Below, piece after piece: positions 1 to 5,152 of a stretch of DNA of 5,288 bases (the stretch's first letter is position 1; each line of letters starts with the position of its first letter). The notes under the pieces were generated by a model. It saw only the letters and a list, made by a program, of their open reading frames with translations, ran no database searches and was not told the origin of the DNA. Source of the stretch: a virus (Duplodnaviria; Heunggongvirae; Uroviricota; Caudoviricetes); IMG/VR virus record IMGVR_UViG_2534682162_000002. The stretch is one strand, 5' to 3'. The position numbers and the translations under genes were made by a program.

Positions 1-342
1 CCTGAAGGTGCCTGGCGGGTCACTGTTTTCCCACCACTCCGTCACGTTGATGAGATAGCCGAGCGGCTCCACCACACGCCGGATTGCGCCGATAGTGCCT
101 TTATGACAGTGGATGAAATAGGCATCGCGGATAACGGCGCGTTTTGTCGCTTCCGGCCACTTTTCATCCCACCTGTCGACCGAAAACGCCCACGCCAGCC
201 ACGGCAGCAGATTTGCCGGACAGGTATCCGGGTTCCACAGCTCACGAATACTGACCGGCGTTTTTTCAATTTCCGCACAGGCTTTTGCGGCGGCGACTTC
301 AAGCGGTGATGAGCCGGTCGGCAGCAGTCGCGAATCACTCAT
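1..342 (-). CDS. I: Baseplate assembly protein I, N-terminal 114 codons (3' end lies beyond the window start)
   Basis: Not in the ORF track because it has no in-window stop. Manual translation of the minus strand from ATG at 342..340 gives MSDSRLLPTGSSPLEVAAAKACAEIEKTPVSIRELWNPDTCPANLLPWLAWAFSVDRWDEKWPEATKRAVIRDAYFIHCHKGTIGAIRRVVEPLGYLINVTEWWENSDPPGTFR, open to position 1. This matches my recollection of P2 gpI and sits directly downstream of J as in P2. The start overlaps the J stop (ATGAGTGA). Confidence 0.85.
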   Translation of the reverse strand, partial: MSDSRLLPTGSSPLEVAAAKACAEIEKTPVSIRELWNPDTCPANLLPWLAWAFSVDRWDEKWPEATKRAVIRDAYFIHCHKGTIGAIRRVVEPLGYLINVTEWWENSDPPGTFR

Positions 343-1243
343 CCGAGCCTCCGGTCACGACGCGGTATTCTGTACAGAAAGACGCCTGCGTACTGTTGAG
401 CACAATGTCGGCCAGTGGTGCAGTCAGTTCGACACGCTGCACGCCTTCCACATGCAAGGCGGCATAAATGGCAGACAGACGGATGTCGCGCCCCAGCCGG
501 TGCTGTGCTGTGATGTACGCTTCCAGCTTTTTCACGGCGGCAGCGCGGATGGGTTCGCTTTCGGGACCAGGGTAAAGGTAAAGCGTGGCGTTTATCTGGT
601 ATTCAACAATGGCGGCAGACTGCACGGTCACGCGGTCGGCCACCGGCCTGACGTCCTCGCCATTAAGGGCGTTACGTACCACAGCCAGCAGGTCTTCGGA
701 TGCGACACCGTTATTTTCGCGGGACAGCACAGAGATGGTGACACAGGCCGGAGACGGACTGGTGACAGAGATATCCGCGACACGCCCGTCAGCACTGCGA
801 CCATGATACTGATAGGCTCCCACCGACCCGGCGACGCTTAAGCCCTCAAACGCCTGCTGAATACGCAGACGATAATCAGTGTCAGACTCCATCACTGCCG
901 GTGTCGGCGGAATGGTCGAATCATCTGCCGGGGTGATAATCAGGCGCGTGGTGTTGTAATTGGCACCAATCACATCAAGGTCATTACCGGCGGCACAGGC
1001 CAGCATTACCGCCCGTGCGGCCTCATTCACACGCTGACGCCAGATAAGCTCGCGATAAGCATTTTCCTCCAGCAGTTTGACGAGAGGCTCGGATTCCAGC
1101 GTCAGGGTACGGGCGACCGCCTCCTGCTGGTCTTCCGGGTAAAGGGAAATCAGTGTCGCCTTGCGTTCGGCAAGAATGGTTTCAAAGTCCAGCTCCTCAA
1201 CCACATCCGGTGCGGGTAGCTGGTTCAGGTCGATAATCGGCAT
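335..1243 (-). CDS. J: Baseplate assembly protein J (T4 gp6-like baseplate wedge component)
   Basis: 302-aa ORF in the track (MPIIDLNQLPAPDVVEELDFETILAERKA...). Length and position between W and I match P2 gpJ. Starts 4 nt after the W stop. Confidence 0.93.
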   Translation of the reverse strand: MPIIDLNQLPAPDVVEELDFETILAERKATLISLYPEDQQEAVARTLTLESEPLVKLLEENAYRELIWRQRVNEAARAVMLACAAGNDLDVIGANYNTTRLIITPADDSTIPPTPAVMESDTDYRLRIQQAFEGLSVAGSVGAYQYHGRSADGRVADISVTSPSPACVTISVLSRENNGVASEDLLAVVRNALNGEDVRPVADRVTVQSAAIVEYQINATLYLYPGPESEPIRAAAVKKLEAYITAQHRLGRDIRLSAIYAALHVEGVQRVELTAPLADIVLNSTQASFCTEYRVVTGGSDE

Positions 1244-1247
1244 GGTT

Positions 1248-1595
1248 TCAACTCACAGGGATGGTTAACGAAAGTGGCTGGCCGGTGTCGTTGTGCTGAC
1301 CGGTTAACGTGACCGTCATTCGCCCGTCAAAACTGCGCGCCGTGGTGACGGATGACAGGGTGACGCGGGGTTCCCATTTCAGTACCGCCATGTAACAGGC
1401 GACCTTAATCTGCAACTCAAGCGCCGGGGTCTGCGGCTGGTCAATCATTGACGCCAGCAACGAGCCGTAATCACGACGCATCACCCGTGAGCCGACCGGT
1501 GTGCGCAGGATATCGCCGATACTCTGGCTGATATGCTCAAGGTCAGTGACAGTCAGGCCATCACTGCGATTCATTCCGAGATAACGCGCTGTCAT
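1248..1595 (-). CDS. W: Baseplate wedge protein W (T4 gp25-like)
   Basis: 115-aa ORF (MTARYLGMNRSDGLTVTDLEHISQSIGDIL...). GGGAG Shine-Dalgarno about 10 nt upstream. ATGA start/stop overlap with V at 1592..1595. Size and position match P2 gpW. Confidence 0.93.
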   Translation of the reverse strand: MTARYLGMNRSDGLTVTDLEHISQSIGDILRTPVGSRVMRRDYGSLLASMIDQPQTPALELQIKVACYMAVLKWEPRVTLSSVTTARSFDGRMTVTLTGQHNDTGQPLSLTIPVS

Positions 1596-2227
1596 AGAGG
1601 ACTCCCGGTTGTGCCGCCGCTGTCGCCGGGATGTTTATGGGTATGCAGTACCTTACCGTTTGATGAGAGTTCACCGCCGGTGTGTTCAATGTTGCCGCGC
1701 ATCGTCCCGCCCTTCTGCACTTCCAGCGTGCCGGTAATCAGCTTGTTTGTGCAGACCACCTCCGGTGTGTCCAGGGTGACGCGGGTTGATGCTTTCACCA
1801 TGACCACCGGCACCGTGGCAGTAACAGAATCAGAAGCCGTCACGCTGGCCGTTTTAATTCCGCTTACCGTGAGTGCACTGGTTTCGGGTTCATACTCAAT
1901 CACCGCCCCGTCAGGGAAACGGATATGCAGGGCATCCGCCGACGCAGACGGCGCAGGGTTATCGCCGGAATAAATCCCCGGCAGAACGAACGCCGTGTCG
2001 AGTTCACCGCCAACGGCCAGAATCAGCACCTGTTCCCCCACGGAAGGTGCCCACCATGTGCGCGAACGCCCGGCGCGATGGGTCAGCCACTGAAGCCAGT
2101 CGGTGCACATGCCGCCGGTCTGCACACGGCAGCGACCGGCGTTAAGGTCGGTTTCGACGATAATGCCGGTGCGTATCATGTTGCGCAGTGCGCGCGCGAG
2201 TTCCTGAATATTTGCGAGAGTGTTCAT
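1592..2227 (-). CDS. V: Baseplate central spike protein V
   Basis: 211-aa ORF (MNTLANIQELARALRNMIRTGIIVETDLNAG...). First gene after the only intergenic gap, as for the first gene of the P2 V operon. C-terminal HTHKH motif at residues 195-199. No obvious Shine-Dalgarno upstream of the ATG. Confidence 0.93.
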   Translation of the reverse strand: MNTLANIQELARALRNMIRTGIIVETDLNAGRCRVQTGGMCTDWLQWLTHRAGRSRTWWAPSVGEQVLILAVGGELDTAFVLPGIYSGDNPAPSASADALHIRFPDGAVIEYEPETSALTVSGIKTASVTASDSVTATVPVVMVKASTRVTLDTPEVVCTNKLITGTLEVQKGGTMRGNIEHTGGELSSNGKVLHTHKHPGDSGGTTGSPL

Positions 2228-2339
2228 AACGGGAAGGATGCCGCCGGGTCATACCGGCGGCAATGTGACGATGAGGTGTCAGGAATGGCACAACTAACGG
2301 TCGAGGTGAGCCAGGATAATCTCTTCAATCATCTGCACA
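2228..2339 (-). promoter_or_regulatory. Candidate late promoter region for the V-W-J-I operon (PV-like, Ogr-type activator dependent); exact elements not resolved
   Basis: In P2 the V operon has its own activator-dependent late promoter upstream of V, overlapping the end of S. Two TGT/ACA-type dyads are visible on the minus strand: a perfect TGT-N10-ACA at 2277..2292 and an imperfect TGT-N12-AGA at 2322..2339 inside the 3' end of S. The remembered consensus is TGT-N12-ACA centred near -55. I cannot say which, if either, is functional. Confidence 0.35.
2239..2262. other. GC-rich perfect inverted repeat (9-bp stem TGCCGCCGG / CCGGCGGCA, 6-nt loop GTCATA); function unassigned
   Basis: Read directly from the sequence at 2239..2262. 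It lies in the S-V gap, 11 nt upstream of the V ATG on the transcribed (minus) strand, and is followed in that direction by the pyrimidine-rich stretch UCCUUCCCGUU. Confidence 0.6.
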
Positions 2340-2746
2340 TCCTCACCGGTAAAGCCGAGCAGAGGACGCGCCGGATAATCAATTTTCTTACCGTCTTTCC
2401 GGGTTTCTTCCGACAGACCGAACTGATGCACACTGGCGATTTTCGGCGACTTCCCGCCGTAAAATTCCATTGATGCCTGTTCCGGGCTGGCGCGGATATG
2501 CAAAAAACGACTGGTGATAAGTTTCGCAAACATTTTTCGCTTAACACGACCGGTCTTTTTTCTGGCGCTCTGCTGCTGGCGTGGCGCGTAGGGTGTGCCG
2601 TCCGGGGCTTTCTGTGCCATCACCCGACGCTGCTGACTCTGCCGCAGACGCTTCGCCAGTTCGGCACTCAGTCGTCGACGCCCTGACGGTGACAGCGACT
2701 CAATCAGTCCGGTCAGCCGGTCTTCAAAACGCTTAAACTCATTCAT
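2294..2746 (-). CDS. S: Tail completion protein S
   Basis: 150-aa ORF (MNEFKRFEDRLTGLIESLSPSGRRRLSAELAKRL...). Start overlaps the R stop (ATGAATGA). Last gene before the intergenic gap, consistent with the end of the P2 O operon. Confidence 0.92.
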   Translation of the reverse strand: MNEFKRFEDRLTGLIESLSPSGRRRLSAELAKRLRQSQQRRVMAQKAPDGTPYAPRQQQSARKKTGRVKRKMFAKLITSRFLHIRASPEQASMEFYGGKSPKIASVHQFGLSEETRKDGKKIDYPARPLLGFTGEDVQMIEEIILAHLDR

Positions 2747-3206
2747 CCCACTTGCTCACCAGTTCGCCATTGATATAAAGCTCCATCGGGCGGGTGACCG
2801 GCTCCGGCGGCGGAGGTTCCGGGATATTCTTCACATGCAGTGCGCCGTCAACCTCACTGACCAGCGTGCGCTCGGTCAGCATCAGGCTGATACTGATATC
2901 AAAGCTGCTGTCATTGTTGATGTCCGCATAAAACGTGAAGCCCTTTTTCTGGCCTTCGTCGGTGGTCATGATGTCGGGCTGATTTTCCCGCAGCCACGCC
3001 AGCACCGGCACGATGAGCAGGTCAAAATCACCGGTAAAGTCGGTCACAATGACATTGAGCGTGTAACGCTTTTCGAATGACAACGACGCCGCCAGCGTGG
3101 AGGCAATACTCCCGTTATCCACGAATATCCGCAGCATATCGGGGTTAGTTTTCAACACCGTGACGGCATCAGTCAGCGCCCTGCGCAGGCTGTCGGGTTT
3201 GAGCAT
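2739..3206 (-). CDS. R: Tail completion protein R
   Basis: 155-aa ORF (MLKPDSLRRALTDAVTVLKTNPDMLRIFVDNGS...). AGGA Shine-Dalgarno about 9 nt upstream of the ATG at 3204..3206. The 5' end is overlapped by the 3' end of lysC. Confidence 0.92.
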   Translation of the reverse strand: MLKPDSLRRALTDAVTVLKTNPDMLRIFVDNGSIASTLAASLSFEKRYTLNVIVTDFTGDFDLLIVPVLAWLRENQPDIMTTDEGQKKGFTFYADINNDSSFDISISLMLTERTLVSEVDGALHVKNIPEPPPPEPVTRPMELYINGELVSKWDE

Positions 3207-3459
3207 CGTTTTCGTCCTGACAGTGTTTAATCATTTTTACCTGGCTGGCACAGCGTGCCAGCGCGTTCTCAAGCTGCCGGATATCGGCACTTAAATCGCC
3301 GTTCGTCTCCGGGTCACTGCCCGGCATCGGGCAAAGACTCACTTTCGGGCAGGCGTTGGGGACAATCACTGGCGTCAGTGCAGGCCGGGCGCTGGTGCAA
3401 CCGGCGCACAGCATCAGGCAGGTCAGCACCGTACCAGCGGCGAAAATCTTCGTTTTCAT
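3169..3459 (-). CDS. lysC: LysC, Rz1-like outer-membrane spanin lipoprotein, embedded out of frame in lysB and extending into R
   Basis: 96-aa ORF (MKTKIFAAGTVLTCLMLCAGCTSARPALTPVIVPNACPKVSLCPMPGSDPE...). It has an N-terminal hydrophobic signal-like segment ending in a Cys-containing lipobox-like motif (LCAGC), then a Pro-rich region. It has its own GAGG Shine-Dalgarno about 10 nt upstream. It overlaps lysB by 146 nt and R by 38 nt. Confidence 0.8.
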   Translation of the reverse strand: MKTKIFAAGTVLTCLMLCAGCTSARPALTPVIVPNACPKVSLCPMPGSDPETNGDLSADIRQLENALARCASQVKMIKHCQDENDAQTRQPAQGAD

Positions 3460-3739
3460 TCAGTAACCTCGTGATGGTTTTCTCGCGCTGTGCTTCACGC
3501 TTCGCGGCGTTTTCCAGTTCCTGACGCAGTGCAACCTGCGCCAGCTCGTTTTTATCTGCCCTGGTGAGCGCAACATGAAACTGTTTTTTCAGCATGGTGA
3601 TGGTCATCTGCTGCCCGCTGGCGACATTGTTTGCCCTGTCCAGCGAGGCGCGCAGGCTGGCGTTTTCATGCTTCGCCAGAAACAGCCCCGCCACCGCCAG
3701 TGATAACAACACAACCAGCACAATCATCAGTTTTGACAT
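3314..3739 (-). CDS. lysB: LysB, Rz-like inner-membrane spanin
   Basis: 141-aa ORF (MSKLMIVLVVLLSLAVAGLFLAKHENASLRASL...). Single N-terminal transmembrane segment followed by a charged, coiled-coil-like periplasmic region (ELAQVALRQELENAAKREAQREK). Overlaps the lysA stop by 13 nt. Confidence 0.9.
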   Translation of the reverse strand: MSKLMIVLVVLLSLAVAGLFLAKHENASLRASLDRANNVASGQQMTITMLKKQFHVALTRADKNELAQVALRQELENAAKREAQREKTITRLLNENEDFRRWYGADLPDAVRRLHQRPACTDASDCPQRLPESESLPDAGQ

Positions 3740-4152
3740 GGTTCCCGCCCCTCAAAACGCTGACGGCAGGCCGTACGTATCAGCCGGAAGAACAGCGACG
3801 CCACGAGGTAAATCAGCGCAGTAAAAATCCACCCGGCAGCGACCAGCGAGATAAACGTCGCCACCATCACTACCAGAGCCACTGACCGCCTGCGCCACGG
3901 CACCGGCTGCAAAAACAGCGCCGTGACAATCTTCACGGCCAGCGATTCCGGCGGCAGCTCCCGCCCGTAGCGTTCCAGCACATACTCAGTGGCATACACG
4001 CCGACACCACCGGCAACCACACAGATAACCGTCACCAGAATCGCCCAGGCGGCGACAAAATTGACGGCCACGCTCTGCGGGTAAATCAGGGACAGTGCCA
4101 GCATCAGCGCCAGCGACACGTTCAGCATCAGTGAAAGGGATAATTTCTTCAT
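3727..4152 (-). CDS. lysA: LysA, polytopic membrane protein of the lysis cassette (proposed lysis-timing regulator or antiholin)
   Basis: 141-aa ORF with about four hydrophobic helices (MKKLSLSLMLNVSLALMLALSLIYP..., AAWAILVTVICVVAGGVGVY..., ALVVMVATFISLVAAGWIFTALIYLVASLFF). GGAG Shine-Dalgarno about 9 nt upstream. Lies between K and lysB as in P2. Confidence 0.88.
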   Translation of the reverse strand: MKKLSLSLMLNVSLALMLALSLIYPQSVAVNFVAAWAILVTVICVVAGGVGVYATEYVLERYGRELPPESLAVKIVTALFLQPVPWRRRSVALVVMVATFISLVAAGWIFTALIYLVASLFFRLIRTACRQRFEGREPCQN

Positions 4153-4166
4153 GGTATTTACTCCGT

Positions 4167-4664
4167 TTAAGCCGGTACGCCGCCGGCGGTACGCCAGACG
4201 GTGACCAGTTTTTCCAGTGAATGCTCACGCTGACCGTAACCGGCACCCGGCAGGGACGCCCAGATATTGCGACAGCGTGAAATGGCGCGCTCAATACGTC
4301 CCGCCCGGATGTCATCCAGTGCACCGCGTTCGCGGATCAACTGAATGGCGAGTCTGTCCTGTGACAACGGACTGAAATCCGGCAGGGCAAGCTGTTTGCG
4401 GTAATGCGGCCAGAACAGGTAAAGCTGCTGATAGCGACCGGAGGCCGTGGATTTTTCACCGCGACGGTTAAACACCTTCGCCGGTCGACCATGTGCGAAC
4501 GGGTGGTCACTGTAGTCGGTGAAGATTTCCGGCTTTCCGTCCAGTCCGGTGACTATCACGTCATAGCCCCGGTTTTTCGTCAGCGGATGATTCGCCGTCC
4601 CTTCGGACACGGCCAGCATGTCGAGAAAGGCGGCGATATTCTGATGCGTGTTAATTACCGGCAT
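4167..4664 (-). CDS. K: Endolysin (phage lysozyme/murein hydrolase) K
   Basis: 165-aa ORF (MPVINTHQNIAAFLDMLAVSEGTANHPLTKNRGYDVIVTG...). Directly downstream of the holin with a TAATG stop/start overlap. Size and position match P2 gpK. Confidence 0.92.
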   Translation of the reverse strand: MPVINTHQNIAAFLDMLAVSEGTANHPLTKNRGYDVIVTGLDGKPEIFTDYSDHPFAHGRPAKVFNRRGEKSTASGRYQQLYLFWPHYRKQLALPDFSPLSQDRLAIQLIRERGALDDIRAGRIERAISRCRNIWASLPGAGYGQREHSLEKLVTVWRTAGGVPA

Positions 4665-4945
4665 TACTGTTTCCCCCTGCCCTTAAAACGGCGCTGAATG
4701 GCAATCTCAATCACCTGATAACCGGCGATACCCAGCATGGAGCCGATGCCGCACACCGCAGGCAGCGACAGGTCAGGAAACTGCACCAGAACAACACCGG
4801 CAACCATCGATACAAAACCACCGAGCAACATGCGCCCGATAAACAGACGCGGGGTGATGGGTTCACCACCGGCAAGCACCTTGCCGACAACAATCAGCAC
4901 CCCAATCATGAAAAGCGACAGGACGCTTTTTTCTTCTGCTGTCAT
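4664..4945 (-). CDS. Y: Holin Y
   Basis: 93-aa ORF with three hydrophobic segments (VLSLFMIGVLIVVGKVLAGG, LLGGFVSMVAGVVLVQF, AVCGIGSMLGIAGYQVI) and a charged C-terminus (RRFKGRGKQ), a class I holin-like topology. Immediately upstream of the endolysin. Confidence 0.92.
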   Translation of the reverse strand: MTAEEKSVLSLFMIGVLIVVGKVLAGGEPITPRLFIGRMLLGGFVSMVAGVVLVQFPDLSLPAVCGIGSMLGIAGYQVIEIAIQRRFKGRGKQ

Positions 4946-4948
4946 GCG

Positions 4949-5152
4949 TTACTCCCACAGATTGACAGTTTCAGCCACGGGCGCGGTCTGAACGTCGGGC
5001 AGTTCGACGGCGGTGCCGTGTGGCAGCACCGCACCCAGTTCAGCCAGTCCCGGATTTGCGGCGAGCACGGTCTCAACCACCCCCTCAGTGCGCCCGTAAT
5101 ACCGGACACAAATGGCGTCGAGCGTGTCGCCCTGTAGCGCAAAGGTCTTCAT
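4949..5152 (-). CDS. X: Tail protein X (small LysM-like Phage_tail_X family protein)
   Basis: The track ORF 4949..5221 (90 aa) contains an internal Met giving the 67-aa product MKTFALQGDTLDAICVRYYGRTEGVVETVLAANPGLAELGAVLPHGTAVELPDVQTAPVAETVNLWE, which matches the P2 gpX size. That ATG (5150..5152) overlaps the L stop as TGATG. The longer form would overlap L by about 70 nt, so the shorter start is preferred. Confidence 0.85.
   Translation of the reverse strand: MKTFALQGDTLDAICVRYYGRTEGVVETVLAANPGLAELGAVLPHGTAVELPDVQTAPVAETVNLWE

Follow-up and report, generated by a model that had tools for sequence, protein, structure and literature searches.

Spanin genes of the overlapped architecture have lysB and lysC of phage P2 as their named example (Kongari et al., 2018; Gill et al., 2012). 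The lysC start lies in the +1 frame inside lysB, and its stop codon lies out of frame inside R (Lynch, 2010). A stretch of 5,288 nucleotides from a virus of the Caudoviricetes (IMG/VR record IMGVR_UViG_2534682162_000002; hereafter, the window) carries an open reading frame placed in the same way, which the original prediction had read as an embedded spanin gene of the Rz1 type. Does this frame encode the outer-membrane subunit (o-spanin) of a two-component spanin, where does its translation start, and how strongly do the overlaps with its neighbours constrain its sequence?

lysC within a P2-type lysis cassette

At the DNA level, the window shares 96-97% identity with P2, Wphi, and over 70 further Peduovirus records. 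Copies of about 98% identity are present in E. coli, and a match was obtained in 1,694 of 5,426 complete E. coli genomes. All genes of the window lie on the minus strand and together make up the P2 late region (Table 1). The candidate o-spanin gene adjoins lysB, which encodes the cognate inner-membrane subunit (i-spanin), and holin Y, endolysin K, and lysA lie upstream. LysB scored 167.4 bits against the equivalog model TIGR03495 phage_LysB (cut-off, 92.75) and was assigned to PHROG 89, an Rz-like spanin family; its translation has a hydrophobic N-terminal segment, MSKLMIVLVVLLSLAVAGLFLA. The product of R matched Pfam PF06891 P2_Phage_GpR (E = 1.3e-45) and PHROG 65 (tail terminator).

Table 1. 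Genes of the window and features of the lysC locus, in the order in which the minus strand is read.
Feature	Position	Strand	Description
X	4949-5152	(-)	
Y	4664-4945	(-)	Holin; PF04550
K	4167-4664	(-)	Endolysin
lysA	3727-4152	(-)	
lysB	3314..3739	(-)	Inner-membrane spanin subunit (Rz-like), partner of LysC; TIGR03495, PHROG 89
lysC Shine-Dalgarno sequence, GAGG	3467..3470	(-)	7 nt before the ATG; inside LysB Thr-Arg codons (ACG AGG)
lysC CDS	3169..3459	(-)	ATG at 3459; 96 codons plus TGA stop; outer-membrane spanin subunit (Rz1-like lipoprotein)
lysB/lysC dual-coding segment	3314..3459	(-)	146 nt; lysC +1 relative to lysB
Predicted lipoprotein signal peptide	3400..3459	(-)	Residues 1-20 (MKTKIFAAGTVLTCLMLCAG); Lys2/Lys4 n-region, then hydrophobic core
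Lipobox L-C-A-G-C	3397..3411	(-)	Residues 17-21; Cys21, predicted lipidated first mature residue; Thr22 at +2
lysC-only segment	3207..3313	(-)	107 nt, from the lysB stop to the R start; encodes NGDLSADI and most of the predicted long helix
Hairpin GCTGGCAC-GCT-GTGCCAGC	3244..3262	(-)	lysC codons 66-72; equivalent of the P2 'putative transcription attenuator'
lysC/R overlap	3169..3206	(-)	38 nt; R +1 relative to lysC; variable LysC C-terminal tail and R codons 1-13
R	2739..3206	(-)	Tail completion / tail terminator; PF06891, PHROG 65; first 38 nt common to lysC
S	2294-2746	(-)	
V	1592-2227	(-)	
W	1248-1595	(-)	
J	335-1243	(-)	

The position of lysC, its 96 codons, the 107-nt stretch that it alone occupies, and the 38 nt inside R all agreed with the ORF coordinates, as originally predicted. 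Half of the gene (146 of 291 nt) lies inside lysB, and its end at 3169 is 145 nt beyond the lysB stop. P2 has the same 146/107/38 geometry (lysB, 7922-8347; lysC, 8202-8492; R, 8455-8922), and so has Wphi. These geometries, together with the family matches given below and the literature, bear out an overlapped arrangement of the Rz/Rz1 type. Two points of the original prediction were wrong. Its title called the gene embedded; lysC starts within lysB in the +1 frame, is not entirely contained in it, and continues past the lysB stop, so that 'overlapped', the word used in the prediction's own text, is the fitting term. It had also assigned LysB, LysC, and R to two frames. The offsets between the genes (3739 - 3459 = 280 and 3459 - 3206 = 253) are both 1 modulo 3, and the three genes therefore occupy all three forward frames, with a maximum of two frames per base anywhere across them. 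The overlaps of lysC are a compact-genome arrangement.

The arrangement was followed in 80 loci encoding LysC relatives, taken from one genome per bacterial species, in which lysB, lysC, and R were located by tblastn. With the window, P2, and Wphi, the set comprised 83 sequences; 79 were complete, and the other four were cut by a contig end or decayed. The frame relations (lysC +1 relative to lysB and R +1 relative to lysC) were constant in all 79 complete loci, which came from many Enterobacterales, and held down to 41% LysB identity and 58% LysC identity. The lengths of the lysB overlap, the lysC-only part, and the R overlap were 146/107/38 nt in 33 loci and 158/95/38 nt in 32, and the lysC/R overlap was 38 nt in 69 of the 79. 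The open frame, its start, and its frame relations are thus conserved in the related loci; a lack of such conservation was one of the two conditions under which the original prediction would have fallen.

The LysC protein is 96% identical to P2 LysC (NP_757382.1), with an equal length of 96 aa, and 95% identical to Wphi LysC (AAN28230.1). It scored 124.7 bits against the NCBIfam equivalog NF038368 P2_Rz1 (cut-off, 27), with residues 4-88 covering the whole 85-position model, and 61.9 bits against Pfam PF23793 'Rz1-like lysis system protein LysC' (cut-off, 27). It was further assigned to PHROG 456, a spanin family. The naming of the gene as a P2-like lysC encoding an Rz1-type o-spanin is upheld by this identity and by the two model scores above cut-off. 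We consider it nearly certain that the feature is lysC, the o-spanin gene of the two-component spanin in a P2-type prophage or phage (Peduovirus).

A structure model of LysC consisted of an extended Pro-rich segment (residues 22-54), a helix (residues 56-89; pLDDT about 75-90), and a disordered tail. A search of the PDB yielded no solved structure of a relative, the best match (E = 0.37) being irrelevant. In an alignment of 21 diverse LysC sequences, Cys21, Thr22, Cys37, Cys43, Cys70, and Cys80 were invariant; the last four are periplasmic and would be available for the disulfides of a homodimer. SpaninDB likewise counts four periplasmic cysteines in the P2-family o-spanin, and two in LysB.

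The GenBank notes of P2 and Wphi describe LysC in other terms, namely 'regulation of lysis' and 'lysis control protein'. LysC might accordingly be mainly a regulator of lysis timing instead of a structural subunit of membrane fusion, and a passage of Gill et al. (2012) describing Markov (2004) relates that lysC missense alleles in the first prolines shift the timing of lysis in peptidoglycan-compromised cells. However, timing phenotypes of this kind can be reconciled with a spanin, and no separate regulator need be assumed to account for them. The domain layout, partner gene, lipobox, and cysteines of LysC are those of an o-spanin, and its present curated names are Rz1-like. A mainly regulatory LysC is very unlikely in our judgement; the pure regulator role is an older annotation, and it does not conflict with the spanin function that we prefer.

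Predicted signal peptide, lipobox, and start codon

The predicted signal peptide of LysC (Table 1) has a mean Kyte-Doolittle hydropathy of 2.06 over residues 5-20. For the P2-family o-spanin, the SpaninDB supplement gives the Shine-Dalgarno sequence cacGAGGTtactta (GAGG), a 20-aa signal, the lipobox LCAG, and a mature N-terminus of CTS. Its signal, MKTKIFAAGMVLTCLMLCAG, is closely related to that of the window LysC and differs from it by one residue, and its curators accept LCAG/C as the lipobox.

The lipobox of the window LysC has Gly at -1, Ala at -2, and Cys at -3, the last of which is outside the [LVI], [ILMFTV], and PROSITE sets. Published lipobox patterns were scored on 140 unique members of the LysC family. 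The PROSITE-type pattern matched 11 members, and the DOLOP and CPT patterns matched 3 each. LCAGC was the most frequent form (100 sequences), followed by LCVGC (14), LCAAC (8), and LSAGC (8). Cys occupied position -3 in about 91% of the 140 sequences; the canonical Leu was found there in only three (T/L-L-S-G-C). The non-canonical -3 position, pointed out in the original prediction, is therefore a trait of the whole family. At +2, Thr was present in 139 of 139 unique LysC members and in the window; being Thr and not Asp, this residue agrees with sorting to the outer membrane. LysC is predicted to be cleaved after its signal and lipidated at Cys21.

The residue at -3 is coupled to the LysB reading. 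LysC codon 18 takes its first two bases from a LysB Val codon (GTN); its third base opens a LysB Arg codon (CGN). Where LysB has Val-Arg, LysC codon 18 must therefore be TNC, which encodes Phe, Ser, Tyr, or Cys. Loci with Val-Arg at this site always had Cys (TGC) or Ser (TCC) at -3 of LysC, and never Phe or Tyr. Three loci with Ile-Ile or Ala-Ile at the site had the canonical Leu-Ser-Gly-Cys in LysC. The odd -3 residue appears to be caused by the lysB overlap, on the strength of a co-occurrence whose direction is not proven. Because of the Val-Arg coupling, the consensus Leu is unreachable for LysC by single steps. L-C-A-G/C may even be a deliberately sub-optimal substrate of Lgt/LspA that would limit or delay the o-spanin in the outer membrane, a dual-coding-dependent brake on premature lysis. 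This idea draws on the codon coupling and the near-exclusive Cys or Ser at -3, which have no bearing on processing kinetics, and we hold it to be improbable.

On the minus strand, the sequence leading into lysC reads C-GAGG-TTACTGA-ATG. The gene thus has its own GAGG inside lysB, as predicted. The in-frame TGA directly before the ATG means that the lysC ORF cannot begin further upstream in the window. An ATG opened lysC at the corresponding position in 77 of 79 loci, a GTG took its place in another, and the one remaining locus started two codons later. Among the loci with a LysB Arg codon within the Shine-Dalgarno sequence, that codon was AGG or AGA in 75 of 75, versus only 10% AGR at other lysB Arg codons. 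The lysC Shine-Dalgarno sequence is an additional synonymous constraint on lysB and accounts for the retention of the rare Arg codon.

RefSeq/PGAP records routinely place the start of lysC 15 codons later, at Met16 (ATG at 3414), as in E. coli NZ_CP025913, where lysC is 3169-3414 in window coordinates. On this annotation, lysC would be a real gene for an 81-aa protein with an MLCAGC N-terminus and no usable signal peptide. Many NCBI entries for LysC are indeed 81 aa long and begin with MLCAGC, and the Pfam PF23793 alignment of LysC begins only at residue 16. Against such a start, Met16 lies five residues ahead of the invariant Cys21, with neither an n-region nor an h-region for export. It lacks a preceding Shine-Dalgarno-like sequence, and some homologues have Thr, Leu, or Ile in its place. 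The upstream ATG, whose conservation is given above, is preceded at the right distance by GAGG or AAGG. The NCBIfam model aligns LysC from residue 4, ahead of Met16, and the 96-aa form is that used in P2's own record and in SpaninDB. A start at Met16 is highly improbable and was rejected on signal-peptide logic and on the conservation of the upstream start codon and Shine-Dalgarno sequence. The later start removes the signal peptide of LysC, so automated lipoprotein or spanin screens of the RefSeq/PGAP records can be expected to miss the protein.

Selection on single- and dual-coding segments

For 25 dereplicated loci of the 146/107/38 class, pS and pN/pS were obtained as Nei-Gojobori counts from an ungapped alignment that was inspected by eye (Table 2). 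In a GC-rich window full of long spurious alternative-frame and antisense ORFs, the length of an ORF is not evidence.

Table 2. Synonymous divergence and pN/pS in 25 dereplicated loci, by segment and reading frame.
Segment and frame	pS	pN/pS
LysB, 48 codons upstream of the overlap	0.58	0.48
lysB/lysC overlap, LysB frame	0.28	0.51
lysB/lysC overlap, LysC frame	0.28	0.50
LysC unique part	0.60	0.25
lysC/R overlap, LysC frame	0.24	1.12
lysC/R overlap, R frame	0.58	0.29
R codons 13-112	0.56	0.36

The six frames of the lysC-only stretch were compared. The lysC frame was open in 25 of 25 loci, with a pN/pS of 0.25; the other five frames had pN/pS values of 0.46-2.1 and stops in 12 to 25 of the 25 loci. 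Nucleotide diversity at codon positions 1, 2, and 3 of the lysC frame was 0.215, 0.108, and 0.417, an ordinary coding signature in which the third position exceeds the first about 2 times and the second about 4 times. The NGDLSADI motif encoded in this stretch was invariant at the protein level. Purifying selection therefore acts on lysC, which is a real gene.

In the lysB/lysC overlap, pS was halved in both frames (about 0.28 versus about 0.58 in the single-coding flanks), pN was about 0.14 in both, and the diversity of codon positions was flattened. The halved pS is the expected mark of dual coding, and both proteins are constrained. In the lysC/R overlap, variability was greatest at lysC codon position 1, which is R codon position 3, and LysC residues 85-96 were the most variable of the protein. 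With a neutral LysC frame and an ordinary R frame (Table 2), the last 12 LysC codons form a read-through tail on which no constraint was detectable at the protein level, and the sequence of this overlap is set by R alone. The original prediction had expected strong constraint throughout, from three proteins on one segment of DNA. This holds at the lysB end; at the R end it was overstated.

The lysC-only stretch also contains the equivalent of an element annotated in P2 as a 'putative transcription attenuator' (Table 1). The hairpin does form, with 8 bp and -16.4 kcal/mol, and its fold was not significant against shuffled sequences (z = -1.15). No U tract follows it, the next bases being CAGGUAAAAAUG, and a terminator scan did not pick it up. 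Of 51 distinct variants, only 2 had all 8 pairs, and these were of the Escherichia P2 type. The hairpin is probably not a conserved element, and a functional conserved attenuator at this site was rejected on the missing U tract, the insignificant fold, and the loss of pairing outside the Escherichia P2 clade. Across the whole window, Rfam gave zero matches, and the repeats in and around lysC were only short ones at chance level. The reading of lysC as a chance open frame over a 107-bp non-coding regulatory spacer between lysB and R, which could point to this annotated hairpin and to the frequency of long alternative-frame ORFs in the window, was rejected on the six-frame pN/pS, the open-frame counts, and the codon-position diversity, with the invariant NGDLSADI and the failings of the hairpin also against it, and its probability is close to nil.

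Proposed role in lysis and comparison with known spanins

Translation of lysC starts within lysB in the +1 frame, with the ATG at 3459, and is driven by the GAGG that the LysB Thr-Arg codons contain. The 20-residue signal peptide would direct LysC through Sec, after which Cys21 would be lipidated and the signal removed by signal peptidase II. With Thr at +2, the Lol system would be expected to carry LysC to the inner leaflet of the outer membrane. The mature protein of 76 residues contains the four invariant cysteines, and in the structure model its Pro-rich extended linker is followed by a long C-terminal helix. LysB is anchored in the inner membrane, and LysC would bind its periplasmic C-terminal part; LysC would also form homodimers stabilised by disulfides. 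Once the K endolysin has removed the peptidoglycan, LysB-LysC complexes would accomplish the last step of lysis, the fusion or disruption of the two membranes. For lipidation, sorting, complex formation, and membrane fusion, this scheme follows the Rz/Rz1 paradigm and published work on P2. P2 lysB and lysC reportedly complement lambda Rz/Rz1 mutants.

In every respect that the original prediction raised, the lysC described here is already known. What the present analysis adds is illustrative only: the halved pS in the lysB overlap, the neutral LysC tail, the AGR codon of the Shine-Dalgarno sequence, the coupling of LysB Val-Arg to the lipobox, and the PGAP start. The scientific weight is small; this is the paradigm overlapped spanin pair, and the present copy belongs to a set of more than 1,600 near-identical ones that prophages carry in complete E. 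coli genomes. The locus does illustrate cleanly how dual coding shapes sequence: it halves synonymous divergence, keeps a rare Arg codon for the Shine-Dalgarno sequence, and appears to dictate a lipobox residue.

LysC resembles lambda Rz1 in being a predicted outer-membrane lipoprotein, in its +1 frame inside the i-spanin gene, in its proline-rich composition, and in its proposed role in the last step of lysis. It differs in that Rz1 is wholly within Rz (embedded), whereas lysC continues past the lysB stop into R (overlapped). Mature LysC is also larger and has a long predicted helix and four cysteines. Among the family models, those of the LysC type alone matched, and no sequence-family relationship between LysC and lambda Rz1 was detected.

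The LysC-like o-spanins of Fels-2 and of the Burkholderia phages KS14 and KL3 share with the window the overlapped lysB/lysC arrangement, the stop inside R, an equal domain order, and similar GDL/NDEL and Cys motifs. In KS14 and KL3, the overlap with R is only about 8 bp. The lipobox of Fels-2 (TLSGC) and that of KS14 (MLCAC) are canonical or of another form, in contrast to LCAGC in the window.

The closest counterparts are P2 and Wphi LysC, with which the window LysC shares its 96-aa length, the +1 start in lysB, the segments of 146, 107, and 38 nt, the GAGG, the LCAGC lipobox, and four periplasmic cysteines. Only a few substitutions set it apart, such as Arg25 and Leu28 in place of Pro25 and Pro28 of P2. 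These two changes are silent in the overlapping LysB frame, and the alleles are found in other natural sequences too.

Dual coding across lysB, lysC and R

The stretch shared by lysB and lysC encodes the C-terminal 48 residues of LysB in one frame; in the other, it encodes the signal peptide of LysC plus its proline-rich linker. Both periplasmic cysteines of LysB (...RPAC...SDC...) are located in this dual-coded part, as are its best-conserved motifs, NENE.FRRWY, LPDAVRRLH, and LPDAG. LysC is more conserved overall than LysB in most loci (71% vs 48% in L020, one of the collected loci). P2 LysC has Pro25 and Pro28, whereas LysC of the window has Arg25 and Leu28. Neither change alters the LysB residue encoded in the overlapping frame (CCC>CCG and ACC>ACT), and large sequence clusters contain the Arg25 allele and also the Pro25 allele. 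Where the peptidoglycan is compromised, lysC missense alleles affecting the first prolines are reported to shift lysis timing.

At the other end, the position equivalent to the lysC stop was examined in L003-L082, the collected loci with LysC relatives (one genome per bacterial species). The stop position is constant in 69 of the 79 complete loci, including the window, P2, and Wphi, and the codon itself differs (TGA, TAA, or TAG). Its first base is the last base of R codon 12, and its other two bases open R codon 13. In the 69 loci, the third base of codon 12 is always T, regardless of the R amino acid, and codon 13 at the stop encodes Asp or Asn. Where the stop is lost, LysC extends to 104-106 aa. 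Weak selection at a synonymous site of R may hold the position constant, or phylogenetic inertia alone may be the reason.

Features discussed in this part, with positions in the window
Feature	Position	Strand	Remark
S-V spacer	2228-2293		66 bp only
lysC stop	3169-3171	minus	inside R
Hairpin GCTGGCAC-GCT-GTGCCAGC	3244-3262	minus	inside lysC
LysB C-terminal 48 residues	3314-3459	minus	dual-coded with lysC
LysC residues 25-28	3376-3387	minus	Arg25, Leu28
lysA	3727-4152	minus	141 aa, hydrophobic

Start, name, and host assignments in database records

In E. coli NZ_CP025913, the lysC annotated by RefSeq/PGAP begins at Met16 and encodes 81 aa (MLCAGC...; 3169-3414 in window positions and in L083, minus strand, vs 3169-3459 for the 96-codon ORF). 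This 81-aa form makes up dozens of NCBI LysC clusters. Since a start at Met16 removes both the n-region and the h-region of the signal peptide, no lipoprotein or spanin screen would pick such records up.

LysA is named 'endolysin' in PHROG 162 and RefSeq phage records and 'DNZ54_00345 family protein' by PGAP; a Pfam search gave no match. In the P2 literature, LysA has four transmembrane segments and is viewed as a putative antiholin. The name 'endolysin' seems to have been carried over from other annotation.

P2-type lysB-lysC-R loci typical of Enterobacterales were also found in assemblies named as Gram-positive or Bacteroidota organisms: Vagococcus sp. WN89Y (L006 and L065), Chryseobacterium sp. 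18061 (L039), Kocuria sabuli (L067), and a Sporobacter termitidis MAG (L049). The most likely explanation is contig contamination or mis-binning rather than a true extension of host range.

Putative transcription signals compared with P2 and Wphi

The hairpin inside lysC is the counterpart of the 'putative transcription attenuator' of the P2 O operon. A U tract is absent 3' of it, its fold is non-significant (z = -1.15), and it is lost beyond the Escherichia P2 clade; hence, the P2 attenuator annotation has no comparative support.

A terminator-like site was looked for in the S-V spacer, and none was found. S-V spacing is likewise short in Wphi. In P2, this position holds orf30, which is non-essential and is encoded on the other strand; the pV activator site and a putative terminator are there too.
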